This document shows positions 8,145 through 64,000 of a DNA stretch of 64,000 nucleotides, in pieces; position 1 is the first letter of the stretch; every line of letters begins with the position of its first letter. The translations under genes were made by a program, and so were the position numbers. The notes under the pieces are model-generated. The model worked only from the letters and a program-made list of their open reading frames with translations. It made no database searches and was not told where the DNA came from. Source of the DNA: Chromatiales bacterium (GTDB lineage Bacteria; Pseudomonadota; Gammaproteobacteria; JAGRGH01); assembly GCA_020445605.1 (NCBI GenBank), contig JAGRGH010000006.1:69465-133464 (forward strand), given 5' to 3'.

Positions 8145-8170
8145 TTCCCGTACCGATTCGTGAATCGTCA

Positions 8171-8535: not shown

Positions 8536-8549
8536 GCTAAAGTATCTGC

Positions 8550-9662: not shown

Positions 9663-9700
9663 CGAGCGGTTGTGATCGAGAGACAGGAATACCTTGGACG

Positions 9701-9752
9701 CAAACCGCGCTTTTCGGTTGCGCCGTTGAAATGGCCTTTGTCTTCGACAAGC
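9701..9752 (+). repeat. degenerate partial copy of extragenic repeat family B
   Basis: aaaccgcgcttttcggttgcgccgttgaaatggcc resembles the B1 core aaaccgcactcttcagttgcgatgttgaaaaggcc. Confidence 0.3.
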
Positions 9753-9859
9753 TTCCAGACGCAACCCACGACTCGATCGGCGATCCGCGCGCCATGACGG
9801 ATGGGTGCGTTTCGACAAACTGCTAAGCTTCTGCCCAGTTCCGCGCCACGCGTGCATGC

Positions 9860-10804: not shown

Positions 10805-11217
10805 TCCGCGACATCATCGAGCCGCGCGGCCCCGCGACGGCTTCGGCCGAGGACCCGCTCGCCGCCGCGCCGGGCTTCGCAATCACGGAACCAGCGATCC
10901 TGGCCGGCATCGCAGCCGTGCTGATCGTCGCCGTGGTTCTGTGGTGGCGCCGTCGCACGGCCTGGCGCCGCGGGATCCAGCGCGCACTCAACGCCGCCGG
11001 GAACGATGCGCCCGGCGCACGCCAGGCCGCATTCGCGACCGCTGCCGGACTGCGCCGGCGCTTCGCCCGGTCGCAGCTGGACGCCGACGATCCACCGCAG
11101 GACATCGACGCCGCCGTGTGGCGCGAACTGGTCGCGAGCCTCGACGCACTGCGCTACCCGTCGACCGTGGAGCCGGCCGCAATGGATCGCCTGCGTGGCG
11201 CGGTCGCGCGACTGTGA
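10783..11217 (+). CDS. DUF4381-like single-TM protein (Bat operon)
   Basis: 144 aa, one TM (ILAGIAAVLIVAVVLWWRRR), Arg/Ala-rich tail; overlaps DUF58 end by 22 nt and BatA start by 4 nt. Confidence 0.5.
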   Translation: MEPDLTLIRDIIEPRGPATASAEDPLAAAPGFAITEPAILAGIAAVLIVAVVLWWRRRTAWRRGIQRALNAAGNDAPGARQAAFATAAGLRRRFARSQLDADDPPQDIDAAVWRELVASLDALRYPSTVEPAAMDRLRGAVARL

Positions 11218-16816: not shown

Positions 16817-16850
16817 CTGTTGAAACGAGAACTTCAACGGCCTGCCAGGC
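16817..16850. repeat. partial family-B repeat / hairpin between convergent genes (overlaps znuA stop codon)
   Basis: gttgaaacgagaacttcaac stem-loop followed by ggcctgccaggc; near-identical to 55009-55043 (gttgaaacgagaatttcaacagcctgccaaac). Confidence 0.35.
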
Positions 16851-45701: not shown

Positions 45702-45869
45702 CGGTGAGAGCGGCGGGAAAACCGGATGAAGCGGGAGGCGAAGCTGCCAAAATCCGCGGGGATTGTAACCCGTTGATCCGGGCGCACGGTGAACGAGCCA
45801 AACCACTCCGTCGCCTGACGGGCTGTTAGAGCAAGGCCGGAACGTCTCGCCGGCAAATCGAATACCCAG

Positions 45870-45967
45870 GTGTTTGATTTTCGCGAGCGACCGAAAACCG
45901 CACTCTTCAGTTGCGATGTTGAAAAGGCCATAGAGAGGCCTGTTTCAACCACCTGCCAAACATCCGG
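45870..45967 (-). repeat. extragenic repeat family B, full copy (B1)
   Basis: gtgtttgattttcgcgagcgaccgaaaaccgcactcttcagttgcgatGTTGAAAaggccatagagaggcctgTTTCAACcacctgccaaac; reverse-complement matches 54868-54960 nearly base for base. Confidence 0.5.
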
Positions 45968-46596: not shown

Positions 46597-46774
46597 TCTT
46601 GAACGATGCAATTTCCTTAATGATGGCCACTTAGGCTACCGTCAGGGTTCGAACATCCGTCGGCGGTAATCGCCTGCGCGCACGGTACGGGCTTTGCCGC
46701 CGGCGCAACGACAACAAGACCCGACCCGCCCCGCGGGATCGCGAAACCTGCGAGCGACGAGGAGGAACGCCGAA

Positions 46775-48679
46775 TTGACCACCTACGCGGAGCTGTATCG
46801 GCAATCGCTGGACGACCCGGACGCGTTCTGGGGCCAGGCGGCGGATGCGATCGACTGGTCGACGCCGCCAACGCGGGTGCTGGACGCCGGCGCGCGCCCG
46901 GCCGCGCGCTGGTTCGGCGGTGGTCGGCTGAACTCCTGCCGCAACGCGCTGGACCGTCACGTCGACGCCGGCTGCGGTGATCGCGCGGCGCTGATCTACG
47001 ACTCCCCGGTCACCGCCCAAAAGCGGCGCTACAGCTACGCCGAACTGCGCGATGCCGTCGCGAAAGTGGCCGGCGCCCTGCACGATCTCGGCGTGCGGCG
47101 CGGCGACCGCGTGATCCTCTACATGCCGATGATTCCCGAGGCCGTGATGGCCATGCTCGCCTGTGCGCGCATCGGCGCGATCCACTCGGTGGTATTTGGG
47201 GGCTTCGCATCGAACGAACTCGCCACACGCATCGACGACGCGAAGCCGAAACTGATCATCGCGGCATCCTGCGGTATCGAACCGGGGCGCGTGGTCGAGT
47301 ACAAACCACTGCTCGACGCCGCCATCGACATGGCCCGCCACAAGCCCGACCACTGCCTTGTTTACCAGCGCGAACAGGCCAGCGCCGCGATGACACCCGG
47401 GCGCGACCGCGACTGGCTGGAGACCGTCGAAAACGCCGAACCGCAGCCCTGCGTGGAGGTCGAGGCGACCGACCCGCTGTACATCCTGTACACCTCGGGC
47501 ACCACCGGTCAGCCGAAAGGCGTGGTGCGCGACAACGGCGGTCATGCCGTCGCGATGACCTGGTCGATGCGCAACATCTACGACATCGGGCCCGGCGACG
47601 TGTTCTGGGCCGCCTCCGACGTCGGCTGGGTCGTCGGCCACAGCTACATCGTCTATGCGCCGCTGCTCACCGGCGCGACAACCCTACTCTACGAGGGCAA
47701 GCCGGTCGGCACGCCGGACGCCGGTGCGTTCTGGCGGGTCATCTCCGAATACGGCGTAAAGGCGCTGTTCACGGCGCCGACCGCGTTTCGCGCCATCAAG
47801 AAGGTGGATCCGAACGGCGAGTTCATCGGCCGCCATGACCTCGCCTGCATGCAGGCGCTGTTTCTGGCCGGCGAACGCTGCGATCCGGACACCCTGTTCT
47901 GGGCGCGCGACAAACTCGGCGTGCCGGTGGTCGATCACTGGTGGCAGACCGAGACCGGCTGGGCCATCGCGGCGAATCCGCTCGGGCTCGAACCGCATGA
48001 GCTCAAGCCCGGCTCGCCGAGCATCGCGATGCCCGGCTACGACGTTCAGGTGCTCGACGAGGAGACCGGCAAACCGGTCGCCGACGGCAACATGGGCAGC
48101 ATCGTGCTGAAACTGCCGATGCCGCCCGGCTGCCTGCCGACGCTGTGGAACAACGACGGGCGTTTCATCGACGCCTATCTGAAACGCTTCCCCGGGTACT
48201 ACCTGACGGGAGATGCCGGCTTTCGCGACAGCGACGGCTACCTGTGGATCATGAGCCGCACCGACGACGTGATCAACGTCGCCGGCCATCGCCTTTCGAC
48301 CGGGCAGATGGAAGAAGTCCTCGCCGGCCATCCGGCCGTCGCCGAATGCGCGGTGATCGGCGTGCAGGACCCGCTCAAGGGCCAGCTGCCGCTCGGACTC
48401 GTCGTGCTGCGCGCCGGGGTCGACCGGCCGGAGGCCGACGTCGTCAGGGAACTCGTCAAGCGCGTGCGCGACCAGATCGGACCGGTGGCTGCGTTCAAAC
48501 TCGCAACCGTCGTCTCAAGACTGCCCAAGACACGTTCGGGAAAGATCCTGCGCGGCACCATGGCGAAGATCGCCGACGGCGAAGCATGGAAGATGCCGGC
48601 CACCATCGACGATCCGGCCATTCTCGATGAAATCACCGCGGCGCTGAAGGGCCTCGGTTACGCAACGGGGAATACATGA
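46775..48679 (+). CDS. prpE: propionate--CoA ligase (propionyl-CoA synthetase)
   Basis: TTG start 8 nt downstream of GGAGGA; aligns end to end with enterobacterial PrpE (…[11 protein letters not shown]…, [38 protein letters not shown]). Confidence 0.9.
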
Positions 48680-49569
48680 ACCATTCCATGCCCAGTCCGG
48701 GCGCGCGACTGCGCGCGGCCCTGCGCGATGAAAGTCCCCTGCAGTGCGTCGGCGCGATCAACGCCTACCACGCACGGCTCGCCGAGGCCAGCGGATTCCG
48801 CTCCCTGTACATCTCCGGCGGCGGTGTCGCAGCCGGCTCGCGCGGCATCCCGGATCTCGGCATCACGACCATGAACGACGTGCTGGTCGATCTCGAACGC
48901 ATCACCGCCGTGACCGACCTGCCGGTGCTGGTCGACATCGATACCGGCTGGGGCGGCGCGTTCAACATCGCGCGCGCGATCCGTTCGATGATCCGCTGTG
49001 GTGCGGCGGCCGTGCATATCGAGGATCAGGTTCAGCAGAAGCGCTGCGGACATCGTCCGAACAAGGTCATCGTCGCGCAGTCGGAAATGGTCGACCGCAT
49101 CAAGGCCGCGGTCGACGCGAAGACCGATCCGGACTTCGTGATCATGGCCCGGACGGACGCGCTCGCCAGCGATGGGCTCGAAGCAGCGATCGAACGCGCC
49201 CGTGCCTGCGTGGAGGCCGGCGCCGACATGATCTTCCCCGAAGCCGTCACGACACTCGACGAATACCGCGCGTTCACCAACGCCGTCGGTGTTCCGGTGC
49301 TGGCGAACATCACGGAGTTCGGTTCGACGCCGTTGTTTACGGTCGAGGAACTAGCGTCGGCCGGTGTCGGCATCGCGCTGTATCCGCTGTCGGCTTTTCG
49401 CGCGGCAAATGCCGCCGCGCTGAACGTCTATCGCACGCTGCGCGCCGAGGGTACGCAGAAAGAGGTGATCCAGACCATGCAGACTCGCGCCGAGCTGTAT
49501 GACTTCCTCGATTATCACGCCTATGAACAGAAGCTCGATGCGCTGTTCGCAGGCTCTGACGAAGACTGA
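48676..49569 (+). CDS. prpB: 2-methylisocitrate lyase
   Basis: ATGA overlap with prpE; [39 protein letters not shown] blocks; 297 aa. Confidence 0.9.
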
Positions 49570-49581
49570 GAGAGAAACACC

Positions 49582-50733
49582 ATGAGCGAAACCGCCCAGA
49601 TTCTTCCCAAGGCCAAGAAATCCGTGGCCCTGTCCGGAACCGCGGCCGGCAATACGGCCATCTGCACCGTCGGGCGCACCGGCAACGACCTGCACTACCG
49701 CGGCTACAGCATCGAAGACCTTGCCGCACACTGCGAGTTCGAGGAAGTCGCGCACCTGATCGTGCACGGCCGCCTGCCGACACAGGCCGAGCTGACGGCC
49801 TACAAACAGAAGCTGCGCCGTCTGCGTGGACTGCCGATGCCGGTGCGAACCGCACTCGAGGCCCTGCCGCCGTCCACGCACCCCATGGATGTCATGCGTA
49901 CGGGTTGTTCAGTGCTCGGCAGCTGCATGCCGGAGTCCGAGGCGCACCCCGCCGCGGCCGCACGCGACATCATCGACCGGCTGATGGCGAGCTTCGGTTC
50001 CATGCTGCTGTACTGGTATCACTACGCCGCGAATGGCCGCCGCATCGATGTCGAGACCGACGATGACTCGATCGGCGGGCACTTCCTGCACCTGCTGCAC
50101 GGCAGGCCCCCCAGCGATTCGCTCGTGCGTGCGATGCACGTCTCGCTGGTGCTGTATGCCGAACACGAATTCAACGCTTCCACCTTCACCGCGCGCGTGG
50201 TCGCCGGCACGAATTCCGATCTGTATTCCTGCATCACCGCAGCCATCGGCGCGCTGCGCGGCCCCAAGCACGGCGGCGCCAACGAAGAGGCGTTTCGCGT
50301 ACAGAGTCGCTATCGCTCCGCCGACGAGGCGGAGGCCGACATCCGCGAGCGGGTCGGCCGCAAGGAAATCGTCATCGGTTTCGGCCACCCGGTCTATACC
50401 ATCGGCGATCCACGCAACCCCATCATCAAGGAGATCGCGCGCGAACTCAGCACGGCACGCGGCGACACAACCATGTTCGATGTCGCGGACCGGCTGGAGG
50501 CCGTGATGTGGGAAATCAAGAAGATGTTTCCGAACGCCGACTGGTTCTCCGCGGTTTCCTATCACATGATGGGTGTGCCGACCGAGATGTTCACGCCGCT
50601 GTTCGTGATCTCGCGCACCAGCGGCTGGGGTGCGCACGTCATCGAACAGCGCGAGGACGGCAAGATCATCCGTCCGTCGGCCTACTACACGGGACCGGAA
50701 AACCTCGGGTTCGTGCCGATCGACGCACGCTGA
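49582..50733 (+). CDS. prpC: 2-methylcitrate synthase
   Basis: 383 aa citrate-synthase fold (…[14 protein letters not shown]…; HGGANEEA). Confidence 0.9.
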
Positions 50734-50823: not shown

Positions 50824-53331
50824 TCAGCTGAGCGACGATTCGCTTGCGACCTGGTCGGCGTATTCACGCGCCAGCGCAAGGCCCTGATCGACCAGCTTTC
50901 GCAGCCGCGCGATGGTCTGCGGCGCCGCACGCCGGGACTCCTCAATCTCGCGGGCGAGCGCGCTGGCATCAGGCAGACCAATGTTTCCGCAGGTTCCGCG
51001 GATCGAGTGCGCGACCTGCGAACAACCATCCGCGTCCTGTGAACCGCAGGCTGCTTCGAGCCGGGCGAACAGCCCGTCGAGTTCACCCCGGGCCTGCGCG
51101 ACGACCGCGCGCACGAACCCCATATTGGCGCCGAGCGCATACATGGATTCGAGCTGCGCAGGGTCGAACATCCCCGTCTGCGTCCGGCGCGGCTCGACGG
51201 GTGCCGCCCTCGGTGCATGCAGGATCGACGGATCGACGCCGGCCGCCACGGCAACGGATTCGCACAGCAACACGCCATCGACCGGCTTGGTCATCACGCG
51301 CGCAATGCCCAGTTCGCGGGCGCGCTCGCGCAGATCGGTGGTCGCATCCGCGGTCAGCAGCACCCAACCCGGTGAATTCGCAGGATTCGTGAACTGGTAG
51401 GTCGAGAACACGTGCAGGCCATCGATGTCCGGCAGGTTGTAATCGAGCACCACGACGTCGGGCCGCATGGTTTCGAGCAGTTCCAGGGCTTCCAGCCCCG
51501 AGCGTGCTCCGATGCACTCGTGGCCAACCCGCTCGAGATGCCAGCGCGTGACCATGAGGTTCGCCTCGTTGTCCTCGATCACGAGAACCTTGAGCCGTTC
51601 CGCCGCCTGGCCGGCCTCGCCTTCGCGTACGGGCGCGACGGCGCGCAGATCCGCGCGCGTTCCGCGACAGGCATGCAGGGTGTTCCACAGTCGACCACGC
51701 TCGAACTGCGTACCCATTCGGTAACCGACGAGCCCGCTGCCCATCCATGCCGTCTCGAGCGCCTCGCCGTAAACGACGAATCCCGGACGCTCGGCCGGTT
51801 CGAGTTGCAGGAGGGTCTCGACCACGCGGCCAACTTCACCATGCGACGCGCGCCGCCCGGTGTGGAGCACGATGATGTCGTGATGAAAACCGCGCGCCGC
51901 GCTCGTGAGTACCCGCTCGCGCGCTGGCGAAACAGAGTCGAACGAATCGACACGCACGCCCCAGTTCGCCAGCGCCTCGCGAATGCCCGCGGTGTCGCCA
52001 CCGAGATCGATCAGCACCACGGCCACTCCGGTGAGACCGGCATCGCCGCCTTCCGCGGACTCTAGCCGCTGCAGGGGCAGATCGAACCAGAACGTCGAAC
52101 CCCGGCCAGGCGTCGAGCGCACAACAATGCGCCCGCCAAGCAGTTCGACCAGGTCCTTTGCAATCGTGGTGCCCAACCCGGTACCGCCATAACGACGCGT
52201 GGTCGAGGCGTCGGCCTGGGCAAACGGCGCGAAGATGCGCCCGGATTCCTCAGGCGTCATCCCAATGCCGGTGTCCGTGATCTCAAACCGCACCAGGCTT
52301 TCGCCCGCAACGCGCCGGACTTCACGTACATGACCGGTCACGGCGCCGTGATCGGTGAACTTGATCGCGTTGTTGACTAGATTCGTGACGATCTGCCGCA
52401 GCATCAGCGGGTCCGAACGCACCTGCCACGGCGCGCCCGCATCGATGTCCAGCGTGAACTCGAGTGCCTTGCCGTGCGCGAGCGGCTCGAACATGCGCCA
52501 GATCGAGCGCATCAGCGCGTGCAGGTTGAACTCGGCCGGATCCGGCGTGGTGCGGCCGGCTTCGATCTTGGAGATGTCCAGCACGTCATTGAGCAGCGCG
52601 AGCAACACGCGCGAGGCGTCGTGGGCGCTCTGGGCCACTTCGCGCTCGGCCTGCGGCAGTCGGCCGACCCGAAGCATGTCCGTAAGCCCGATGATTCCGT
52701 TCAGCGGGGTGCGGATCTCGTGACTCATGTTCGCGAGAAACCGGCTTTTCGCCTGGTTGGCATCCTCGGCCTGCTTGCGTGCCGCATCCAGACGCCGCAG
52801 CAAAACCCCCTGGTAGAGCGGAATCAGCGCCAGCCCGACCCACAACCCGATCGACAGCGGCAGAATGCCCTGCCAGGTCGGACTCGCGGCAATCACCGCC
52901 CCGAAGCCAACCAGCGACAGCATCATGCTGTAGTTGAGCAGCGACCGCCCGAAGCGCGCGCCCATGCCCACGATGACCCACAGGTAGATCAGATAAAACG
53001 GCCAGCCGAGTTCGCCGGCCAACGCCAGCGCCACACTGAGGCTCACGATATCCAGGGTTGCACAGACGTAGCGGCGCGCAATGACGATGCGCGGTTCGAC
53101 CAGCACCCAGGCGATCAACCCCAGCGCCACCAGCACATAGCCCGCCGCCATGAGCCGCGGAATGTGCAGGCCCTCGCCGCCCGGGTTGTAGATCAGAACC
53201 GCGATCGCAACGACGATCGAGATCGCCAGCCGGATCAGGGCCTGTTCGAACTCTCCGCCCGGCAGATCACGGGCGGATTTCAGACGCCCCGCGAACCCGA
53301 GCACGCGGTGCACGATCTCAGCCATGTGCAA
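50824..53331 (-). CDS. unorthodox hybrid sensor histidine kinase (multi-TM input – HisKA – HATPase – pseudo-receiver – receiver – HPt)
   Basis: 835 aa; ~6 TM N-terminal domain with no periplasmic domain; H-box [18 protein letters not shown]; HATPase [19 protein letters not shown]; [18 protein letters not shown]…[12 protein letters not shown]; C-terminal HPt ([17 protein letters not shown]); start overlaps the rSAM stop by 14 nt (alternative ATG 53325). Confidence 0.85.
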
Positions 53332-54808
53332 CCTTGGCCTGGCGGTTGGTTTCTTCGTCGCGCGCCGACAACTTCAGGGAGGCGGGCAGCGGCGCATCAT
53401 GAATGTCAAAGCGCGCGCGGCGCAGTGCAAGGTAGTCGTCGCGACGATCGATTTCGACCGGACCGATGCCGCCGGACATCGGGTGCAGATGCTGCTTTGC
53501 GGACAGTCGCGCGAGCGCGGCGATATTTCGTTCCTCGGGCGTGGCCAGCCGGCCGCTGCGCCAGAGAAACTCATAGTGCGAGACGTAGGCGTCGTACATC
53601 TGCGTTTCGAGTTCCCGCGTGCTCATGTTCGGATGATGCCATGTCGGACAGCCCCCGTCGAAGCGGTCCATGTTGGTCTCCCAGATCAGTCCGTCGCGGC
53701 GGAACTCCTCATACTGTTCGGTGCCCGGGATCGGCGTAAGGATGTAGAACGAAACGACCTTTGGCGCCAGCCCGCGCAGCGCCTCCAGGTGTTCGGCGAT
53801 CGACGCCGGCGTATCCTGCGGAAAACCGATGATGTTCGAGTAATGCGCGCGGATTCCGGCGGCCGCGCACTGCTCGATGATCGAGCGATAGGTCTCCGGG
53901 TGGTTGTGATATTTGTGCGCGGCCTTGAGCGTCGCGCGCGAAAACGACTCCACACCGACGAACATCTCAAAGCAACCCGCCCGACCAAGCAGTTCAATGA
54001 ACTCCGGCTGGCGCGCGACCACGGTGTCGCACTGGCAGAAAAATCGCAGGCCCAGGTCCTCCTCGATCATGGCCTCGAGAAGAGCCGGCGCACTCGGCGC
54101 CTTGTTGAAGTTGTCGGACACGAACATGACCGTCTCGACGCCGCCCGCACGCGCGCGACGCAGGCTCTCGATCGTCGCATCCACGGACTGTTCGCGCACC
54201 GCACGACCTGCGATCTGGATCACCGCGCAAAACTTGCACTGGTAGGGGCAGCCGCGCATCGGCACCAGGCCCACCATCGGCGAGAAGTAGCGTTTCAGGT
54301 CATCGCGGGACGGCGGCGTGATCGGCGTCGGCGGCAATTCGGTCGCCCAGCGCTGGCCCTCGCCATAGACGGCCTTGAGTCCATGACCAGCGGCGGCATC
54401 GGCGAGGATTTCCGGCCACACGCGTTCGGCTTCGGCCAGCGCGAAGCTCACCCCCCGGCCCTGCAAGGCCGAGGTGTCGCAGGTCATCGGGTGCGGGCCG
54501 CCGATCACGACGTTGCGCACGCCGCGATCCAGCGCCAGGGCGGCAAGATCGAGTGCACGATGAAACTGGTGCGACTGCACCCCGACCATCGCCACGAGCG
54601 TGTCGCGCCCCGCAAGCCAGTCCAGGTAGTCGAGATCGCAGTGCACGTACTCATCGACCATGCGCGTTTCGACCGGCCGGTCCGCGAACCGCGCCGGAGT
54701 GAGAGCGGCCAGGTGGGTCAGGGTCGCATTGGGCATGAAGCCGGTACGGAAGCGTTCCACGCTACCGCTGCGGGTGTACTTGCTCGGCTTGATCAACACT
54801 ACGCGCAC
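53318..54808 (-). CDS. B12-binding domain-containing radical SAM protein
   Basis: 496 aa; N-terminal cobalamin-binding-like Rossmann (MRVVLIKP…VIGGPHP), rSAM cluster CPYQCKFC (CxxxCxxC); RBS gggagga 5 nt upstream of the ATG. Confidence 0.85.
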
Positions 54809-54838
54809 GGCAGTCCTCCCGCTACGCCCCCGCTTTTC

Positions 54839-54850
54839 AGTCTAACACCG
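54839..54850 (-). promoter_or_regulatory. candidate extended -10 (cggTGTTAGACT on the minus strand) for the rSAM–kinase operon
   Basis: TGn-TAGACT ~30 nt upstream of the rSAM ATG; shares the 11-mer gcggtgttaga with 34711-34721. Confidence 0.3.
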
Positions 54851-54867
54851 CCGCGGAGATTTGCCGC

Positions 54868-54960
54868 CTCTTAACAGGTTGTTGAAAAAGGTCCATCGAT
54901 GGCCTTTTCAACATTGCAACCGAAAAGCGCGGTTTTCGGCTGCTCTCGAAAATCAAACAC
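54868..54960 (+). repeat. extragenic repeat family B copy (B2), inverted relative to B1
   Basis: ggttGTTGAAAaaggtccatcgatggccttTTCAACattgcaaccgaaaagcgcggttttcggctgctctcgaaaatcaaacac ≈ reverse complement of 45870-45950. Confidence 0.5.
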
Positions 54961-54961
54961 T

Positions 54962-55045
54962 TGTGTGTTCGATTTTCGGGCGAGACGTCCCTGTCTCGCG
55001 CCAACAGACCGTTGAAACGAGAATTTCAACAGCCTGCCAAACCCG
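54962..55045 (+). repeat. diverged family B copy (B3), head to head with B2, forming a ~180-bp imperfect palindrome
   Basis: gtgtgttcgattttcgggcgagacg…GTTGAAAcgagaaTTTCAACagcctgccaaac; its 5' end mirrors the 3' end of B2 (aaatcaaacac|ttgtgtgttcgattt). Confidence 0.45.
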
Positions 55046-55150
55046 ACGACACTGGTCCGTCTATGCACCCCTTGCGGCCATCGGGCAAACTGCGGTTTCC
55101 TGGCTCGCGCAATGGTGATAACGTCCGGACCGACTCGGTCGAATGATGAA

Positions 55151-55271
55151 CGGCACGGGGAAGTGCCGCCACAACGACGGCGGCAAGCCGTTGAAAATGA
55201 AAGAAAGCGAAAAACCACGCTGTTTCGTTTTCGCTGCGCTGGCAATCCTTCGATGGATTGATCAGAGCTTC
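55151..55271 (+). repeat. ~120-bp structured extragenic element, family A copy 2 (upstream of the KAS operon)
   Basis: Collinear with 8415-8535, sharing cggcacRgggaagtgccgcc, …ccgttgaaaatgaRagaaagcgaaaaa…ttttcg(g)tttcgctgc(t)ctggcaatcc…ggattgatcagagcttc. Confidence 0.5.
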
Positions 55272-55359
55272 CTTGGTTTTTTAAGGGAATTCAGAACCGT
55301 ATGCCGTACGCGTCGCCCACAAACTCCGGCCCATGCACGGGCTCTTCAGGACCTCGACC

Positions 55360-56559
55360 ATGACAGTAGCCATTACCGGGGTCGGGGTCGTGTCGTCACT
55401 GGGGATTGGCTTCCCGGCGTTTTCGGCGGCACTCGCACAAGGCCGCAGTTCGATCTCGCACTATGACGATCCGGTCAACGGCCGCAGCCGGCTCGCCGCG
55501 CGCATCGGCGACTGGGCGCCGGTACCCCCGCCCCCCGGCACCGGTCTCGGCAACGAGATTGATCCGGCCTGTCAGTACGCGCTGATCGCCGCGCGCGAGG
55601 CCGCGACCCGCGCGCGAGCACTCGAACGCCACGCCGACCGCGACCGGATCGGCGTCGTCGTCGGCTGTGCGGTGCCGGGCAAGATCGTCGACGACGCGGC
55701 CTATGCGAAGTTCTACGCGAATCCGACGCGACGTGTGCACCCGCTTTCGATCCCGCGAATCATGCCAAATGCAGCACCTTCGCTGATTGCGGCCGATCTG
55801 GAACTCGGTGGCACCGCCTATACGGTTTCAAGCGCCTGCACCTCTTCGCTGCACGCGCTGATGCTCGGCGCGACGCTCATCGAAACTGGCCTTGTCGACG
55901 CCGCGATCGTCGGCGGAACCGAGGCGCCATTTGCGCCCGGACTCATGGCGGGCTGGGACTCGATCGGCGTGCTGTCGAAGACCAGCTGCCGGCCGTTCGC
56001 CCCTGACCGCGACGGCACCGTGCTCGGCGAAGGTGCCGCGATGTTCGTATTGGAGTCTGCGCACCGCATCGGGCACGGCGCGATCGCGACAATCGCCGGC
56101 TACGGTGCAACGACCGGCCGCGGCGAAGTCGTCACCCCGGATACCGCGGCAGAAACCAGGGCCATGCGACAGGCGCTGCACGCGGCCGGGTGGTCAGGCG
56201 AGGATGTCGACTACATCGAATCCCACGGCACCGGCACCTGGGCCAACGACACCTCGGAGGCCGATGCCATTCATGCAACACTGGGCTCCGGCGCCGCAGT
56301 TTGGGTACCGGTCGGCGTACTGAAATCACGCATCGGTCACACGCTGGGCGCCGCCGGGGCATTTGCCTTGGCCGCCAGCCTGGCGCTCGCCCGCTCGCCA
56401 CAATGGAGCGGCCCGGAGTATGAATTCGATCCGGCGTTGCGCCTGTCACCAGCCGGCGGCCAGACCATCCGCCCGATCGACCGCAGCCTGGTCAATGCCT
56501 TCGGCTTCGGCGGTGCGAATCTAACGCTGGCCATCCGCCATGGAAGCGGCGGCAACTGA
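55360..56559 (+). CDS. beta-ketoacyl-[ACP] synthase, KAS I/II (FabB/FabF) family
   Basis: ORF 55333..56559 trimmed to MTVAITGVGVVS; active-site Cys in SSACTSSLHA, His in the ESHGTGT block, second His in the GHTLGAAG block; C-terminal NAFGFGGAN. Confidence 0.8.
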   Translation: MTVAITGVGVVSSLGIGFPAFSAALAQGRSSISHYDDPVNGRSRLAARIGDWAPVPPPPGTGLGNEIDPACQYALIAAREAATRARALERHADRDRIGVVVGCAVPGKIVDDAAYAKFYANPTRRVHPLSIPRIMPNAAPSLIAADLELGGTAYTVSSACTSSLHALMLGATLIETGLVDAAIVGGTEAPFAPGLMAGWDSIGVLSKTSCRPFAPDRDGTVLGEGAAMFVLESAHRIGHGAIATIAGYGATTGRGEVVTPDTAAETRAMRQALHAAGWSGEDVDYIESHGTGTWANDTSEADAIHATLGSGAAVWVPVGVLKSRIGHTLGAAGAFALAASLALARSPQWSGPEYEFDPALRLSPAGGQTIRPIDRSLVNAFGFGGANLTLAIRHGSGGN

Positions 56560-56607
56560 ACGCACCCATGCTCACATTCAATGACGCACGGTAGATCATC
56601 GATGGAA

Positions 56608-57396
56608 ATGCCAGAGAATCTTTTCAAGCGGGCTCTAAGGGCTGGCAAGGTTCAGTACGGACTCTGGCTGGGGCTCGGCGAGACGTTCAGTGCGGAGATC
56701 TGCGCCGGCGCCGGATTCGACTGGCTCCTGATCGATTCGGAACACGGGCCGAACGACCTGCGCAGCATTTTCGCCCAGCTCCAGGCGATTGCCCCGTACC
56801 GGTCGCAGCCGGTCGTCCGGCCGCCGCATGGTGACTCGGTGCTCATCAAGCAGCTGCTTGAAACGGGTGTGCAGACACTGCTCGTGCCGATGGTCGAAAC
56901 AGCCGAATATGCAGCCAACCTGGTACGAGCGATGCGATACCCCCCCGACGGCATTCGCGGCGTCGGCAGCGCGCTGGCACGCGCTTCGCGCTGGGGACGT
57001 GTCCCGGATTACATGGAGCGGTCGAACGACGAGATGTGTCTGCTGATCCAGATCGAAACCAAGACAGGCGTCGAAAACATCCACGAAATCCTCGGTGTCG
57101 ACGGTATCGATGGTGTGTTCTTTGGGGCGGTCGACCTCGCAGCATCCTACGGCCTGCTTGGCGAATCGACTCACCCGCGGGTTGTCGACACCATTGTGGA
57201 AGGCATCAGGACCGTGTGCGCCCGTGGGCTCTCCGCAGGCGTGCTGTGCAGCGACCCGGATCTGAACCGGCGCTACATCGAAGCGGGCGCCAACTTCGTC
57301 GCCGTTGGCGTCGACGCACTGCTGCTGGCGGCGGCCACCAGCGAGCTTTGCGGAAGGTATAAAAAGACCGAAGTCGACCTGTCGAACACCTATTGA
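56608..57396 (+). CDS. HpcH/HpaI-family aldolase (2-keto-3-deoxy-acid / 2,4-dihydroxyhept-2-enedioate aldolase-like)
   Basis: Trimmed to MPENLFKRALRAGKVQYGLWLGL (HpaI N-terminus pattern); DWLLIDSEHGP and divalent-metal ligands (…IQIET…, …FFGAVDLA…); alternative ATG 56581/56602. Confidence 0.8.
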   Translation: MPENLFKRALRAGKVQYGLWLGLGETFSAEICAGAGFDWLLIDSEHGPNDLRSIFAQLQAIAPYRSQPVVRPPHGDSVLIKQLLETGVQTLLVPMVETAEYAANLVRAMRYPPDGIRGVGSALARASRWGRVPDYMERSNDEMCLLIQIETKTGVENIHEILGVDGIDGVFFGAVDLAASYGLLGESTHPRVVDTIVEGIRTVCARGLSAGVLCSDPDLNRRYIEAGANFVAVGVDALLLAAATSELCGRYKKTEVDLSNTY

Positions 57397-57503
57397 TTTC
57401 GTGCGCACGGCGCATACCGACGACGCGCCCCGCGTTCTGGATATGCGCGTAGCCGCGTAGCATAATTTTCGGCTGGCACAGCCGATTTTCCCACCCCTCG
57501 GAA

Positions 57504-58676
57504 ATGCATTCGGGCGCACCCCCAAAGAAAGCCACTCGCCTGTCGAGGATTCGTCCCTTCTACGTCATGGAGGTGCTGGAGAAGGCGTTCCGGATGGTGA
57601 CGAGTGGCGCGGATGTCATCCACCTGCAGATGGGTGAGCCGGACTTCAGCACCCCGGACCCCATCACCCGCGCCGGCATACGCGCGCTCGAGGAACGGCG
57701 CACGCGCTACACGCAGGCGCTGGGCATCCCCGAGCTGCGCGAGAAAATCGCGCTTTCCTATCCCGAGACCTGCCGACCACCCGTCGACCGCATCGCGGTG
57801 ACACCCGGCTCGTCGGCCGGACTGCAGATGGTCTTCGCATGCCTGGTTGATCCGGGCGACGAAGTACTGCTTGCAGACCCGAACTACCCGTGTAATTTCA
57901 ATTTCATCAAACTCTACGGCGGCAACCCGCGTGCATTGCCCGCGGATGCGTCAACCGGCTACCAGCTGACGGCCGAGATGATTCGTCACGCCTGGACGCC
58001 GCAGACACGCGCGGTGCTGATTGGATCGCCGTCCAATCCGACCGGTTCGGTCGTATCCCGGGAACAGATGGGCGCCATCGCCCGAACCGTGCGAGCGCTC
58101 GGTGGACATCTGATCGTCGACGAGATCTATCACGGCCTCGTCTATGACGCGGATCTTCGAAGTGCGTTGCACGATGGCGACGACATCTTCGTCGTCAACA
58201 GCTTCTCGAAGTTCTACGGGATGACCGGCTGGCGGCTGGGCTGGATGGTGGTGCCGGATGCATTCATCGACGAAATCACCCGCCTGACACAGAACCTGTT
58301 CATCTCCGCCAGCACGCCCGCGCAGTTTGCCGCGCTGCACGCGTTTGATGGCGAAACCCTGGACGAACTGGAACGCCGCAGGGCCCTGTTTCAGACCCGC
58401 CGCGACTTCTTCGTGCCCGCACTGCGCGAACTCGGATTCAGCGTCCCGCTGATGCCCCAAGGCGCGTTCTATGTCTATGCCGACAGCAGCCGGTTCAGTG
58501 ACGACAGCGACGCACTGGCCATGGACATGCTCGAAAAGGCCCTGGTCGGCAGCGCCCCGGGCAAGGACTTCGGCGCATATCGCCACCGGGAACATCTTCG
58601 TTTCAGCTACGCGAACTCCCTGGAAAACATTGAACGCGCCGTGGATCGGATGGCGGGCTACCTGAAACAACGGTAG
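57504..58676 (+). CDS. PLP-dependent aminotransferase, class I (AspAT-like fold type I)
   Basis: 390 aa; …IHLQMGEPDF…, …SPSNPTG…, PLP-Lys block NSFSKFYGMTGWRLGW. Confidence 0.85.
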   Translation: MHSGAPPKKATRLSRIRPFYVMEVLEKAFRMVTSGADVIHLQMGEPDFSTPDPITRAGIRALEERRTRYTQALGIPELREKIALSYPETCRPPVDRIAVTPGSSAGLQMVFACLVDPGDEVLLADPNYPCNFNFIKLYGGNPRALPADASTGYQLTAEMIRHAWTPQTRAVLIGSPSNPTGSVVSREQMGAIARTVRALGGHLIVDEIYHGLVYDADLRSALHDGDDIFVVNSFSKFYGMTGWRLGWMVVPDAFIDEITRLTQNLFISASTPAQFAALHAFDGETLDELERRRALFQTRRDFFVPALRELGFSVPLMPQGAFYVYADSSRFSDDSDALAMDMLEKALVGSAPGKDFGAYRHREHLRFSYANSLENIERAVDRMAGYLKQR

Positions 58677-58680
58677 GTGC

Positions 58681-59847
58681 ATGAACCGGGACAGGCTCAG
58701 ACTGCTGATCATCGGTGCCGGCGGTATCGGGGCGTATTACGCGGCCCGCCTGGTCGACGCCGGCCACCCCGCCACATTGCTCGCCCGCGGCGCGCATCTC
58801 GCGGCAATGCAACGAGGTGGCCTGCGGGTCGAACATCCCGATTTCGGATTCAGCGGTGCGGTCGATGCCCTCGATGCAGACGAACTGCTCACCTCGCGCG
58901 ACGCCGCGGATTTTGATCTCGTTCTGCTGACGACCAAGGCCAACAGCACGGTCGACCTGATGCGGCAGCTGGGGGACTGGATCATGTCCGGCCCGGGGCT
59001 GAGCGTGATGTCCTTGCAGAACGGGATCGATAACGAACCGGCCATCGCGGGCCGGCTCGGCCTGCCCCGCACGCTGGGCGGTCTCGCCGTGCGCATCGGC
59101 GGTCATGTCACGGAACCCGGACATGTAATCGCGACAGGGCCGGCGCAGGTGGTCTGTGGCGCCTGGCCGAACCACCATGCGAATTACGGTGTACCGACTG
59201 AACGGATTCCGGCCGGCGAACTACTGGAGACCGGCGAGCGGGTCCGTTTCACGATCCCGACCGGACACGTGATCGAACTCTATGCACGGAAGACGGCCAC
59301 CGGCGGCACCTTGCCCGCAGTCAATCCCGAGGCATGGTCTCCCGAGGCGGAGCACGGCATCGCGCCGATCCGCATGGACCACATCCTGCTCTATGGCCCG
59401 GATATCGACGGAGCGCACGCCATCTTCCGTGACGTACTCGGCTTCTATCTGGTCGAGCACATCGTCCAGGACGACGAATCAGATCTGGCGATCTGGTTGT
59501 CCTGCTCGATCAAGGCGCACGACATTGCGTTCGTTAAACACGACGAGCCCGGCAAGCTGCATCACATCGCGTTCGTGCTGGAAACCTGGGAAAAGGTGCT
59601 GCGCGCGGCTGACCTGATGTCCATGCATCGCGTACCCATCGACATCGGCCCGACCCGCCACGGCGTGACACGTGGCACCACGATCTATGCGTTCGATCCG
59701 TCGGGCAACCGCTTCGAGACCTACTGCGGTGGCTACCAGCCCTACCCGGACTGGCAACCAACGAAATGGACAATGGAGGAAATCGGCGCGGGCATCTTCT
59801 ATCACAACCGCCAGCTGAACGAAGCGTTCCTCACCGTCCTGACGTAG
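58681..59847 (+). CDS. chimeric protein: ketopantoate-reductase (PanE/ApbA) N-terminal Rossmann domain fused to the catalytic C-terminal domain of a catechol 2,3-dioxygenase-type extradiol dioxygenase
   Basis: Residues 1-~160 LLIIGAGGIGAYYAARL…VLLTTKANST…SLQNGIDNE (ApbA_N); residues ~170-388 align with the XylE catalytic domain (…VRFTIPTGHVIELYA…VNPEAWSPE…IRMDHILLYGPDIDGAHAIFRDVLGFYLVEH…SIKAHDIAFVKH…KLHHIAFVLETWEKVLRAADLMSMHRVPIDIGPTRHGVTRGTTIYAFDPSGNRFETYCGGY…IFYHNRQLNEAFLTVLT); single uninterrupted 388-codon ORF. Confidence 0.75.
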   Translation: MNRDRLRLLIIGAGGIGAYYAARLVDAGHPATLLARGAHLAAMQRGGLRVEHPDFGFSGAVDALDADELLTSRDAADFDLVLLTTKANSTVDLMRQLGDWIMSGPGLSVMSLQNGIDNEPAIAGRLGLPRTLGGLAVRIGGHVTEPGHVIATGPAQVVCGAWPNHHANYGVPTERIPAGELLETGERVRFTIPTGHVIELYARKTATGGTLPAVNPEAWSPEAEHGIAPIRMDHILLYGPDIDGAHAIFRDVLGFYLVEHIVQDDESDLAIWLSCSIKAHDIAFVKHDEPGKLHHIAFVLETWEKVLRAADLMSMHRVPIDIGPTRHGVTRGTTIYAFDPSGNRFETYCGGYQPYPDWQPTKWTMEEIGAGIFYHNRQLNEAFLTVLT

Positions 59848-60012
59848 GAAAATTTCGGCTTGGGGATATGCGCGACGCAGTGGGCGTTTCCTGGCGGTCA
59901 GGGCACAGATCGAGCACGACGGCCCCGTCAGGGCCTGCCGACCGAGCTGTACAACCAGAGCGGCATCAATGAACCGAAGGGGCAGAACTGGCTGCCAATC
60001 AACCGGCCCCCG

Positions 60013-63000
60013 TCATTCTGCTCGATGCTCCAGTTCCGCCTCCAGTCGCTTCTGGATCTGCTTTGGGGAGCCGGTCTTGCGTGCGAACAGCTCATAGGAC
60101 GTCGGCACGACGAACAACGTAAACAGGGTCGCCGCCAGCACACCGTAGAGCACCACCGTGCCGATGACCGCACGGGTTTCGGCGCCAGCCCCTTCTGAGA
60201 TCAGCAGCGGCAACGACCCTGCCGCTGTCGTGATGCCGGTCATGACGATCGGTCTGAAACGCACGCGAGTGGCTTCTATCAGTGCATCGTGCAACTGTTC
60301 CCCCTGATCGCGCAGCTGGTTGGCGAACTCCACGATCAGAATGCCGTTTTTCGCGGCAAGCCCGACCAGCATGATCAGACCGATCTGGCTGTAGACGTTC
60401 AGGGTCTGGTCTGTCAGGTGCAACCCCAGCAGTGCACCTGCCATTGCCAGCGGCACCGTCAGCATGATGACGAGCGGATGTATCCAGCTTTCGAACTGCG
60501 CGGCCAGCACCAGGTACACCACCAACACTCCCATGACCAGCACAAACACGATCGACTGCGCGCTGGTTTTGAAGTCACGCGACTGACCCTTGTAGTCGAC
60601 GATGACCTTCCCGGGCAGATTTTCCGCAACCAGGTTGTCCAGATACTCCAGCGCCTTGCCGAGCGATACGTCATCTTCCAGATTCGCTTCCAGTGTGATA
60701 CTGCGAACCCGGTTGAACCGATTGAGCTTGATGGAGTCCGCCACTTCCTCGAGGGTCACCAGACTCGCCAGTGGAATGAGCTTGCCGCTGCCCTGTGACC
60801 GAACGTACAGGTTGCTGAGATCAGTCGTAGTGCGCTGATCGGAGGCCTCGCCCTCCAGTATGACGTCATACTCCTCACCTTCTTCGATGTATGTGGTCAC
60901 CCGACGCGAGCCAAGCATGGTCTCCAGCGTGCGACCGATCTCACCAACCGTCACACCAAGGTCCGCCGCGCGGTCATAGTCGATCAACACCTGCAACTGC
61001 GGTTTGGTTTCCTTGTAATCCCAGTCCAGACCGACCAGCCCGGGGTTCGACGCGTTGATCCTGTCCAGCAGGATATCGCGCCATTGCACCAGTTCGTCGT
61101 AGGTGCCGCCCCCGATCACGTATTGCACCGGCTTCTGTATACGTGCGCCGAACCCCTGACGCATGACGGGGAACGCGCGCACGCCGGACAAGCCGCTCAG
61201 CCGCTTGCGCACGTCATCCATGATCGCCCAGGCCGAGCGCCGGTCGCGCCAGTCGCTCAGCACATTGATGACGATTCCGCTGTTGAAAATCTCAAAGTTG
61301 CTGAATGTTCTCGGCGCGCGAACCAGCAGCCGCGAGACCTCGCCCGCCTCTACCAGGGGCATCATGCGTCTTTCGATTTCATCCATGTAATCCTTCATGT
61401 AATCGTATGTCGCCCCTTCCGGCCCGTTGACCAGCACAAAGAATGCGCCACGATCCTCCTTCGGGGCATATTCGCTGGGAATCTGTTCGATCAGCCAATA
61501 CGTCGCGTACAGCATGCCGACAAACACCAGGCCAACCACCCACTTGGCCCGCAACGCCACCTTCAGAACGGCGAGGTAACCATTGCGCAGCTTGCCGAAC
61601 ACCACGTCCACACCATGCGCCAGACTGGCCTTGCCCGCATCCTCGGGCATGATCTGTGAAGCCAGCATGGGCGACAGAGACAATGCCACGAAGCTAGAGA
61701 ACGCCACCGCTGCCGCCATGGTCAGCGCAAATTCGGAAAACAGTCGGCCGACATCGCCCTGCAGGAATGCTATCGGTACAAACACCGCAACGAGTACAAC
61801 GGTCGTTGCGATGACGGCGAAGGCGACCTGTCGAGAACCGCGATAGGCGGCGACGAGCCGGCTCTCGCCGTACTGATCCATTCGTCGGTGGATGTTCTCC
61901 AGAACCACGATCGCATCATCCACCACCAGACCGATCGCCAGCACCAATGCCAGCAGGGTCAGAATGTTGATCGAAAAGCCCAGCATCCACAGCACCAGGG
62001 AAGTCGCAATCAATGACACCGGCACGGTCACGGCCGGCACGATGGTCGCGCGAAAACTGCCCAGGAACACAAAGATCACCAGCACCACAAGCCCGATGGC
62101 GATCGACAAGGTTTTGTAGACCTCCTCGATCGCCCCCTTCACAAACACCGAGGTGTCATAGCTCTGCTTTATGGTCATCCCTTCAGGCAGAACGGGATTG
62201 ATCCTGGCCATTTCCGCCTTGGCCGCATCGGCGACGTCAATGGTGTTTGCGGTGGACTGCTTGATGATGCCGATGCCGACCATCGGCACGCCATTTCCGC
62301 GGAAAAACGTGCGCGATTCATCGGAACCTTTCTCAACCCTGGCCACATCCCCCAGCCTGACGAGGTATCCATTCTCACCACGGACGAGCACGAGTCTGGC
62401 GAAATCCTCGGCGTGTTTGAACAGCCGGGAAACCCGCACCGTGAACTGGCGGTCGACCGAGTCCAGACTGCCTGCGGGCAGTTCGAGATTCTCTTCCCGA
62501 AGGGCCTTTTCCACATCCGCCACCGAAAGATTTCTGGCTGCCAGGGCCTTGCGATCCAGCCAGATCCGCATGGCAAAGGTCTGGCCGCCACCGACCCTGA
62601 CACGCGCTACACCATCCAGCACGGAGAAGCGGTCGACCAGATAACGCCTCGCATAGTCGGACAACTCCGGCACGGTCATGCGATCGCTGACCAGGTTCAG
62701 CCACATGATCACATCGTCATTGCTGTCGACTTTCTGGATTTCCGGCGGGTCCGCTTCATCCGGCAGATCCGCCAGCACGGTGGACACCCGGTCCCGAACA
62801 TCATTCGCGGCGCCGTCAAGGTCACGCGACACATCGAATTCAATGGTGATGGCGGATCGTCCATCCTCGCTGGTCGATTCCATGAAACGAATGCCCTCGA
62901 CTCCCGCAAGGCGGTCCTCGATCACTTGCGTGATTCGGCTCTCGATAACGTTCGCCGCCGCGCCGGGGTAGATCGTTTCGACCGAAACCACGGGTGGATC

Positions 63001-63120
63001 GATGTCCGGATACTCGCGCAGTGGCAGCCGATCGAACGCCACCAGACCAAACGCTATGAGGAGGAGCGACATGACCGATGCGAACACCGGTCGGGTGATC
63101 GAAACATCGGAGAGGACCAT
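60013..63120 (-). CDS. RND multidrug efflux transporter permease (HAE1/AcrB family)
   Basis: 1035 aa, 12 TM with two large periplasmic loops; start overlaps the stop of the upstream MFP gene. Confidence 0.95.
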   Translation of the reverse strand: MVLSDVSITRPVFASVMSLLLIAFGLVAFDRLPLREYPDIDPPVVSVETIYPGAAANVIESRITQVIEDRLAGVEGIRFMESTSEDGRSAITIEFDVSRDLDGAANDVRDRVSTVLADLPDEADPPEIQKVDSNDDVIMWLNLVSDRMTVPELSDYARRYLVDRFSVLDGVARVRVGGGQTFAMRIWLDRKALAARNLSVADVEKALREENLELPAGSLDSVDRQFTVRVSRLFKHAEDFARLVLVRGENGYLVRLGDVARVEKGSDESRTFFRGNGVPMVGIGIIKQSTANTIDVADAAKAEMARINPVLPEGMTIKQSYDTSVFVKGAIEEVYKTLSIAIGLVVLVIFVFLGSFRATIVPAVTVPVSLIATSLVLWMLGFSINILTLLALVLAIGLVVDDAIVVLENIHRRMDQYGESRLVAAYRGSRQVAFAVIATTVVLVAVFVPIAFLQGDVGRLFSEFALTMAAAVAFSSFVALSLSPMLASQIMPEDAGKASLAHGVDVVFGKLRNGYLAVLKVALRAKWVVGLVFVGMLYATYWLIEQIPSEYAPKEDRGAFFVLVNGPEGATYDYMKDYMDEIERRMMPLVEAGEVSRLLVRAPRTFSNFEIFNSGIVINVLSDWRDRRSAWAIMDDVRKRLSGLSGVRAFPVMRQGFGARIQKPVQYVIGGGTYDELVQWRDILLDRINASNPGLVGLDWDYKETKPQLQVLIDYDRAADLGVTVGEIGRTLETMLGSRRVTTYIEEGEEYDVILEGEASDQRTTTDLSNLYVRSQGSGKLIPLASLVTLEEVADSIKLNRFNRVRSITLEANLEDDVSLGKALEYLDNLVAENLPGKVIVDYKGQSRDFKTSAQSIVFVLVMGVLVVYLVLAAQFESWIHPLVIMLTVPLAMAGALLGLHLTDQTLNVYSQIGLIMLVGLAAKNGILIVEFANQLRDQGEQLHDALIEATRVRFRPIVMTGITTAAGSLPLLISEGAGAETRAVIGTVVLYGVLAATLFTLFVVPTSYELFARKTGSPKQIQKRLEAELEHRAE

Positions 63121-63122
63121 GC

Positions 63123-64000
63123 CTAGGGTACCGCTGGCGCATTTTTCGGCGCGGACTGCAAGATATCAGCGACTGATCGGGAGCCATCGTCGACGTCTTT
63201 TATCGTTACCGCCGTGCCCGGCCGTACGGAAATGGTTCCGTGAGTGACGACCCGCTCGCCCGCTTTCAGGCCATCCAGAACTTCAACCTCGCCCGGACGG
63301 CGGCCGCCAATGCTGATTTTCCTGCGTTCGGCCTTGTGTCCGTCGCCATTGGGCACGACAACCAGCACGAACTGCTCGCGGCTGACCGGCATCAATGCGG
63401 CTTCGGGGATGGCAAGCGCATCCCGTCGATTGTTGCTGACCGTCACCTGCATCAGCATGCCCGGTTTCAACAAACGCTCTCGGTTGGGCAATAGCGCGCG
63501 AACACGAACCGTACGTGTTACGGGGTCAATCCGGCTGTCCACACCGCTGACCTTGCCGGTGAAGCTGCGATCGGCATAGGCATCCGTGCTCGCAGAGATC
63601 ATCAGACCGGATCTGAGTGAAGCGAGATAAATGCTGGGGACCGACACATCCAGCTTCATGACGCTGTCGTCGTCGAGTGTGGCGATCAGGTCCCCGGGCT
63701 CCACCAGGGCACCGACACTGATGGTTCTCAGGCCAATCACGCCGTCAAAGGGCGCCCTGATCAAGCGATCCGCAAGGCGCGACTCAATGACGGCCAATCG
63801 GGCACGCGCCGTTTCCAGCTCACGCGAGCGCTCGTCCAGAAGGGACTTTGCCGCCGCGCCCGTCGTCTCGAGCGACTTCACGCGGTGATACTGGCGTCGC
63901 GCTTCCTCGACGAGGGCCTTGCCCTCCTCCAGTTGGGCATGCTCCTCGGCCGACGTCATTTCCACCAGAACCTGCCCCTTCGACACGCGAGCGCCATCGT
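63123..64000 (-). CDS. RND efflux periplasmic adaptor (membrane fusion protein), 3' portion; 5' end beyond window
   Basis: Coiled-coil hairpin (…EEARRQYHRVKSLETTGAAAKSLLDERSRELETARARLAVIESRL…), beta-barrel and MP domains; frame open to the window edge. Confidence 0.85.
   Translation of the reverse strand, partial: DGARVSKGQVLVEMTSAEEHAQLEEGKALVEEARRQYHRVKSLETTGAAAKSLLDERSRELETARARLAVIESRLADRLIRAPFDGVIGLRTISVGALVEPGDLIATLDDDSVMKLDVSVPSIYLASLRSGLMISASTDAYADRSFTGKVSGVDSRIDPVTRTVRVRALLPNRERLLKPGMLMQVTVSNNRRDALAIPEAALMPVSREQFVLVVVPNGDGHKAERRKISIGGRRPGEVEVLDGLKAGERVVTHGTISVRPGTAVTIKDVDDGSRSVADILQSAPKNAPAVP

Follow-up and report, generated by a model that had tools for sequence, protein, structure and literature searches.

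A putative reduced Rpf-type lipid-signal locus linking a radical SAM enzyme, a ketosynthase and an RpfC-like hybrid kinase in a Chromatiales bacterium

The window analyzed here is a 64,000-nucleotide stretch of a Chromatiales bacterium genome (contig JAGRGH010000006.1, positions 69,465 to 133,464 of the forward strand) with a G+C content of about 65%. The locus under study is a divergent gene cluster near its right-hand end, where a gene for a radical S-adenosylmethionine (SAM) enzyme and one for a hybrid sensor kinase occupy the minus strand and a gene for a β-ketoacyl-acyl carrier protein synthase (KAS) heads four genes on the plus strand. An original prediction, made from the sequence alone, had joined these genes and a neighboring efflux pump into a single pathway. 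The open reading frames (ORFs) and domains on which it drew were all present as described, according to the ORF list, Pfam, and NCBIfam, and because more than 20 metagenome contigs carry the same window sequence, the features of the locus are not an assembly artifact. The central features are as follows.

50824-53325, minus strand: hybrid sensor kinase, 833 amino acids from ATG 53325, with the ORF extending to 53331 (Pfam, hydropathy, alignment).
53242-53265, minus strand: docking-site equivalent of the kinase, L21 to Q28 (LPGGEFEQ), directly before the first transmembrane (TM) helix and matching R15 to Q22 of the Xanthomonas sensor RpfC.
53318-53325, minus strand: 8-nt overlap (ATGGCTGA) of the radical SAM stop and kinase start, 14 nt if TTG 53331 is the start.
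53318-54808, minus strand: radical SAM enzyme with an N-terminal Rossmann-like domain and a radical SAM core (Pfam PF04055, structure model).
55360-56559, plus strand: stand-alone KAS II-type ketosynthase, with the ORF open from 55333 (Pfam, NCBIfam, motifs).

In domain order, the kinase consists of an input region of 5 to 6 TM helices, HisKA (PF00512), HATPase_c, about 130 residues without a match, REC, and HPt. A hydropathy scan placed the helices within residues 26 to 176, with loops of about 10 residues or fewer between them, so the protein has no periplasmic domain, in agreement with the initial description of about six membrane helices as the only input. The proposed order HK-pseudoREC-REC-HPt was matched for HisKA, HATPase_c, REC, and HPt but not for the pseudoREC: residues 582 to 693 are the sole REC found by Pfam, and neither the pseudoREC segment nor the input domain matched any Pfam or NCBIfam family. 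The catalytic parts are intact, with an H-box, a full-length HATPase_c, and profile matches to REC and HPt. RpfC of the Xanthomonas RpfF/RpfC/RpfG system is built likewise, with a multi-TM input region, no periplasmic domain, and then HisKA, HATPase, REC, and HPt. Relative to RpfC, the window kinase and its counterparts in the related clusters described below carry in addition the stretch of about 130 residues that separates HATPase from REC.

Judged by sequence, translation of the kinase more likely begins at ATG 53325, which has AAGG 7 nt upstream, than at TTG 53331. The overlap from which translational coupling to the radical SAM gene had been proposed is real with either start, but it is likelier to span 8 nt than 14. 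Because sequence conservation of the kinase begins at residue 25, the coupling holds in both cases.

The radical SAM core matched PF04055 at 78.8 bits, and its CxxxCxxC motif (C187/C191/C194, coordinates 54227-54250) consists of cysteines that are invariant across the family. Across phyla, members of this family are 52 to 63% identical, and an alignment of 12 of them has over 150 columns without variation; the window enzyme keeps those positions as well as the cysteines. The label "B12-binding" fared less evenly. An AlphaFold model (predicted local distance difference test score, 74) gave AprD4, as the top match, together with TsrM, MgmA, OxsB, CysS, and TokK as the best PDB structures over both domains, which upholds a class-B-type architecture, but the N-terminal region has no match to the B12-binding family PF02310 in Pfam. 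AprD4 itself is cobalamin independent. The enzyme scored under the cut-off of every named B12-radical SAM subfamily searched (PhpK, HpnJ, HpnR, ladderane-type TIGR04072, and BchE), with best scores of 94.6 against 600, 78.9 against 577.6, and 76.6 against 360. CysS and TokK are class-B enzymes acting on carrier-bound substrates, and the likeness of the window enzyme to these and to AprD4 extends from the predicted fold to gene context, as the radical SAM gene of relatives shares an operon with genes for acyl carrier protein (ACP) and KAS. It differs in that sequence likeness is limited to the radical SAM core, where a profile of the family matched PDB sequences weakly, at 62 bits or less. A Tes-like tetraether synthase identity was considered and rejected; GDGT-MAS matched the radical SAM core alone, with a TM-score of 0.29. 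On the structure model, the enzyme is a member of an uncharacterized family with a predicted class-B-like architecture.

The ketosynthase most likely starts at ATG 55360 (MTVAITG), the call made on most contigs, and its Cys-His-His triad is intact (motifs ACTSS, SHGTGT, and IGHTLGA). It did not reach the cut-off for housekeeping FabF (TIGR03150, 235.6 against 493.75), and the highest-scoring FabF among PDB sequences reached 163 bits. Closer relatives are the KAS proteins of about 400 amino acids in Sedimenticolaceae-type clusters, which are 35 to 42% identical and have the ACxSxxHA signature in common with the window protein. In those clusters, KAS is encoded beside a radical SAM gene and a kinase gene, and no ACP gene was detected.

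Whether the radical SAM gene and the hybrid kinase form a conserved pair had been posed as a check on the original prediction. One genome per species was scanned for radical SAM orthologues, which yielded 168 carriers, and neighborhoods were counted in the best 80 of these 168 loci with 10-kb flanks, using tblastn with the window proteins and clustering of neighboring ORFs. Kinase and KAS were each found in 23 of the 80 loci. KAS and/or kinase occurred in 23 of 28 proteobacterial-type loci, two more of which end right after ACP, so that positive loci and proteobacterial loci largely coincide. The association with this type of KAS was seen in about 20 proteobacterial genomes (Sulfuricaulis, Sedimenticolaceae, and others). 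The pairing thus held and was extended to a trio of radical SAM enzyme, KAS, and membrane-embedded kinase.

The recurring set comprises the radical SAM enzyme, a KAS of 402 to 455 amino acids, a crotonase of about 300 amino acids, a hybrid kinase of about 850 amino acids with the architecture of the window kinase, and a cyclic di-GMP (c-di-GMP) regulator; an ACP of about 100 amino acids joins it in some lineages. The regulator, present in 15 related loci in all, is a REC-HD-GYP protein, replaced by REC-PAS-GGDEF-EAL in three. Five gene orders were seen for the set of radical SAM enzyme, KAS, crotonase, kinase, and regulator, which argues for a functional rather than an inherited linkage.

Crotonases of RpfF type were found in 17 related loci. 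The cluster crotonase passed PRK08788 (356 bits), had the diffusible signal factor (DSF) synthase RpfF as its next-best NCBIfam match (217 bits), and keeps both catalytic glutamates. Its PDB matches were 3m6m (RpfF), 6dgn (RpfF), and 5fus at 160 to 182 bits, compared with 60 bits or less for ordinary enoyl-CoA hydratases; 5fus is annotated as a putative enoyl-CoA hydratase, and we take it to be a Burkholderia RpfF homologue. On the sensor side, DSF binding by Xanthomonas RpfC requires five residues just ahead of its first TM helix: R15, D17, S18 (for which T can stand in), E19, and Q22 (PMC5391125). Fifteen kinases from crotonase-containing loci carry all five as R-x-D-[S/T]-E-x-x-Q, with RpfC spacing and in the same position. 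Crotonase, regulator, and docking residues together identify the loci of the relatives as clusters of the rpfF-rpfC-rpfG type, and the comparison with RpfC first drawn from kinase architecture proved apt at the level of the RpfF-clade synthase, the RpfG-like HD-GYP regulator, and the ligand-docking residues.

Clusters of rpf type are already known from chemolithotrophs (PMC4504480, PMC8357829, PMC4136832), and rpfFCG clusters have been reported in Thiobacillus, Methylobacillus, Methylophaga, and Leptospirillum (PMC4504480, PMC8357829). The usual neighbor in described clusters is rpfB, an acyl-CoA ligase gene, and they have no counterpart of the radical SAM enzyme, the dedicated KAS, or ACP. 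New here are the added radical SAM enzyme, KAS, and often ACP, an addition that is apparently undescribed: literature searches tying radical SAM, KAS, or ACP to rpf or DSF found no such link, their one match being an unrelated hopanoid cluster. Among other layouts encountered, one locus (L183) has a classical rpfC/rpfF pair without a radical SAM gene, and three (L185, L101, and L102) pair a kinase with a NarL-type regulator. Four Sedimenticolaceae-type loci (L032, at 8097-9956, and L037, L039, and L060) encode an additional protein of 610 to 619 amino acids with an RpfC-like TM input, REC, and HPt and without a kinase core, which recalls Xanthomonas RpfH and the split RpfC of Leptospirillum.

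The kinase, radical SAM, and KAS genes of the window are best explained, on sequence comparison, as a functional unit that is a reduced member of this cluster type of sulfur-oxidizing Gamma- and Betaproteobacteria. We assign a probability of roughly 60% to the locus being a diverged, reduced Rpf-type lipid-signal module, in which KAS and the radical SAM enzyme act on an acyl chain, the kinase senses the derived ligand, and output passes to an unlinked regulator.

For the full clusters, the proposed sequence of events is that KAS, with or without a dedicated ACP, would produce an acyl-ACP, which the radical SAM enzyme would then modify; C-methylation would be the likeliest reaction, although this is a guess. 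The RpfF-like crotonase would dehydrate the product and release a signal of the cis-2-enoic-acid type, and the multi-TM kinase would bind that signal at its R-x-D-S/T-E-x-x-Q site. A His-Asp-HPt phosphorelay would then feed the HD-GYP or GGDEF-EAL regulator and so shift c-di-GMP levels. The window organism would retain, at this locus, the radical SAM enzyme, coupled to the kinase, and KAS. Given the altered docking motif and the lack of crotonase, ACP, and c-di-GMP regulator genes in the window, its kinase would be expected to respond to another acyl-derived ligand, one that KAS and the radical SAM enzyme presumably continue to produce, and to pass its output to an unlinked regulator.

A number of observations weigh against such a module. 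Searches of the six-frame translation of the 64 kb with tblastn and profile hidden Markov models found no crotonase of RpfF or other type, no ACP, and no HD-GYP gene, whether of the RpfG-type REC-HD-GYP form or not, and they also bore out the initial remark that the window holds no cognate response regulator. The locus therefore differs from Xanthomonas Rpf in having neither RpfF nor RpfG. Its kinase has L-G-G-E-Q in place of the R-D-S-E-Q of RpfC, keeping two of the five docking residues (E and Q). The window input domain matched a profile of the cluster kinases at 124 bits, no better than the 121 to 123 bits of unrelated plasmid hybrid kinases, among which tblastn showed this domain to be widespread, so its similarity is no proof of orthology. 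A search of about 5.8 billion proteins with the input-domain profile recovered just 10 fragments, all short and none of them a named RpfC; the loci of these fragments include L183 and L185 and also L184, described next. Because the input-domain score is unexceptional, orthology of the kinase rests on whole-protein architecture (an end-to-end alignment to its cluster counterparts, 34% identical over residues 5 to 825 and 47% over residues 90 to 428) and on synteny with radical SAM and KAS. A gammaproteobacterial metagenome-assembled genome (L184, 2794-9847) has genes for a HAD protein, an HD-GYP regulator, and a REC protein, with KAS and ACP divergent from a kinase and without a radical SAM gene, so a KAS-kinase link is possible without that enzyme. 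Radical SAM orthologues with neither KAS nor kinase nearby occur in about 50 loci of Acidobacteriota, Planctomycetota, and Gemmatimonadota, and the enzyme therefore need not be signal specific. The gap of 42 nt between KAS and the co-directional aldolase gene downstream makes cotranscription of these two possible. Finally, homology, synteny, and motifs are what was observed, and the chemistry of every cluster member, the ligand, and the output are read from them.

The stand-alone orthologues imply a substrate that those bacteria share, for which an acyl chain or membrane lipid is a possibility, and bear on another explanation, membrane-lipid homeostasis, in which the radical SAM enzyme and KAS would modify membrane acyl chains and the all-TM kinase would sense the state of the bilayer in the manner of DesK. 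The wholly membrane-embedded input domain and the loss of DSF-docking residues from the window kinase agree with this, the stand-alone enzymes of other phyla fit a housekeeping lipid modifier, and B12-radical SAM enzymes that modify lipid tails are well known (PMC13459092). One locus (L068, 9992-17111) comes closest: a radical SAM gene and a hybrid kinase with two of five docking residues are followed there by a NarL-type regulator, a fatty-acid desaturase, and Sir2, a DesK/DesR-like layout. No NarL regulator or desaturase lies beside the window locus, however, and the main partner genes across the relatives encode an RpfF-clade synthase and c-di-GMP regulators rather than enzymes of lipid synthesis, with the ligand-docking residues kept in 15 cluster kinases. 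The window kinase also has HisKA (PF00512), REC, and HPt, a domain make-up different from that of DesK. Lipid homeostasis is on this balance unlikely.

Stand-alone orthologues (L036-L094, 52 to 58% identity) sit amid lineage-specific housekeeping genes, such as VIT1/ferritin-like, aconitase, and HEAT-repeat genes. Three contigs labeled "Doudnabacteria" (L040, L069, and L075) carry a radical SAM gene of the acidobacterial type, and a locus labeled Bacteroidota (L015) has cluster proteins about 62 to 86% identical to those of Sulfuricaulis loci; all four are probably misbinned contigs.

The missing synthase and output regulator could also mean that the window locus is an evolutionary remnant, three genes that decay or no longer cooperate after the loss of crotonase, ACP, and regulator. 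The degenerate docking motif and a rearranged neighborhood, with a chimeric gene and repeat-element insertions in the spacer, point the same way. Against decay, all three ORFs are intact and keep their catalytic residues (the radical SAM cysteines, the KAS triad, and the kinase H-box and domains), and the radical SAM-kinase coupling is a derived, tighter arrangement. Nor is the combination confined to the window, as three other loci (L068, L034, and L083) pair KAS and/or radical SAM with a motif-poor kinase that has two of five docking residues, with no crotonase seen. In L034 and L083, the fetched DNA ends at KAS and a crotonase could lie beyond it; the intervening genes are housekeeping genes alone. 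We regard the remnant explanation as quite improbable.

The proposed reduced Rpf-type module has parallels in other sensing systems. Ralstonia PhcB/PhcS and Vibrio CqsA/CqsS share with the window the logic of an enzyme that derivatizes a fatty-acyl substrate encoded beside a TM-bundle sensor kinase, PhcB being a classical SAM methyltransferase and CqsA a pyridoxal phosphate (PLP) enzyme of the 8-amino-7-oxononanoate synthase type. The aminotransferase gene of the window does not add to this likeness; its product is of the aspartate aminotransferase type (PRK08960), not CqsA-like. Pseudomonas aeruginosa PA1396/PA1397, to which the kinase-regulator pair of L185 is similar, resembles the window locus in being an RpfC-like sensor without a cognate RpfF, and it differs, by its description, in lacking HPt, having a DNA-binding regulator as partner, and sensing foreign DSF and Burkholderia DSF (PMC4504480). 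The window kinase has HPt, has no adjacent regulator, has lost docking residues, and is coupled to radical SAM and KAS.

DSF-family signals are thought to need only RpfF and the ordinary intermediates of fatty-acid synthesis. An operon in which a class-B-like radical SAM enzyme, a private ACP, and a private KAS are conserved ahead of an RpfF-clade synthase leads one to expect signals of new structure. The clusters also provide a first functional handle on an uncharacterized radical SAM family present in at least 168 species and suggest that largely uncultured bacteria of the sulfur cycle use quorum sensing. The window variant, which lacks RpfF, has a changed docking motif, and couples radical SAM to kinase, is a natural test of how the parts depend on one another. 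A more far-reaching proposal, offered as speculation and on present evidence doubtful, is that the radical SAM enzyme and KAS would form an RpfF-independent synthase of a new kind of fatty-acyl signal, carrying a modification such as mid-chain methylation, to which the RpfC-like kinase of the window would be retuned through its altered docking site. DSF-family signals of sulfur oxidizers would then need radical chemistry, and the stand-alone enzyme of Acidobacteriota would modify acyl chains of membrane lipids.

The remaining features of the locus are as follows.

54809-55359, no strand: divergent intergenic spacer of 551 bp, made up largely of repeat copies, with the KAS start at ATG 55360.
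54881-55039 and 55151-55271, no strand: repeat copies in the spacer, copies of dispersed intergenic elements.
56602-57396, plus strand: HpcH/HpaI-family class II aldolase, with the ORF open from 56581 (361.0 bits against a TIGR02311 cut-off of 368.8).
57504-58676, plus strand: class I/II PLP aminotransferase, PRK08960-like (Pfam, NCBIfam).
58681-59847, plus strand: chimera of ApbA/PanE-N and extradiol dioxygenase, with the PanE/ApbA N-domain at residues 1 to about 166 and the junction near 59180.
60013-63120, minus strand: resistance-nodulation-division (RND) permease, convergent on the plus-strand genes.
63123 onwards, minus strand: periplasmic adaptor of the RND pump, a convergent neighbor that runs off the window at 64000.

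It had been proposed that KAS, aldolase, aminotransferase, PanE-dioxygenase fusion, and radical SAM enzyme build one metabolite, which the kinase senses and the RND pump possibly exports. The four plus-strand genes are indeed adjacent and co-directional (gaps of 42, 107, and 4 nt) with no convincing terminator between them, and the RND pair does converge on them. Near the 80 radical SAM orthologues, however, HpcH was found at one locus, a distant aminotransferase at one, and the fusion, RND permease, and adaptor at none, and in 80 loci of aminotransferase relatives the gene never occurred with HpcH, KAS, radical SAM, PanE, or dioxygenase. No homoprotocatechuate-pathway genes lie near the aldolase gene. 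Neither a four-gene operon acting as one pathway nor the seven-gene scheme of making, sensing, and exporting is supported by these counts, and the proposal is very unlikely.

The fusion adds to the case against it. Among the matches listed from about 5.8 billion proteins, the PanE-N-dioxygenase architecture occurs in this organism only; the other matches cover the dioxygenase part alone and are nearly all normal catechol 2,3-dioxygenases of about 308 to 309 amino acids, at 72 to 89% identity. The chimera aligns to residues 89 to 309 of catechol 2,3-dioxygenase, without the first 88, its dioxygenase part falls under the TIGR03211 cut-off (308.3 against 320.2), and its truncated PanE portion has no PanE C-terminal domain in Pfam. 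The closest full-length dioxygenase relative examined with an extended flank (L095) sits in an ordinary meta-cleavage operon, whereas no meta-pathway genes lie downstream of the chimera in the window. By its sequence, the "fusion" is a deletion chimera and a singleton. At 0.60, the G+C content of the RND region is lower than that of the rest of the window, and the region borders a toxin-antitoxin island, which suggests that it is variable or acquired; this region (60000-64000; 15500-21000 in L009) continues into MazE/PIN, Fic, ParE, and HipA toxin-antitoxin genes. The best explanation for the aldolase, aminotransferase, chimera, and RND pump genes is that they are neighbors without a shared role. 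Adjacency by itself had thus made too much of the locus: of the seven genes flagged, four are bystanders, one of these a deletion chimera.

The spacer that the original prediction gave as about 550 bp and filled with repeats is real, at 551 bp up to ATG 55360, but its repeats are not specific to the locus. Dispersed intergenic elements occur at 8415-8535, 9702-9721, 16819-16847, 45842-45949, 54881-55039, and 55151-55271, in pieces of 20 to 90 nt that are 87 to 100% identical, and some contain the palindrome GTTGAAA...TTTCAAC, found three times in the window compared with zero expected by shuffling. From their sequence, they look like repetitive extragenic palindromic or miniature inverted-repeat transposable elements. 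A role of the spacer copies as operators was rejected, as the same elements occupy other intergenic regions of the window. The elements matched no Rfam family, an Rfam scan of the whole window gave zero matches, and a scan for promoters and terminators returned signals at or below shuffle expectation.

On the other side of the locus, a propionate/methylcitrate operon (prpE-like acyl-CoA synthetase, prpB, and prpC; 46694-50733) converges on the kinase gene and is not kept beside the radical SAM orthologues. Farther away, positions 10000 to 15200 form a block of 73 to 74% G+C, against about 65% elsewhere, which holds one ORF of 563 amino acids without a Pfam match and encodes VWA- and BatD-type ORFs resembling a Bat/aerotolerance operon.

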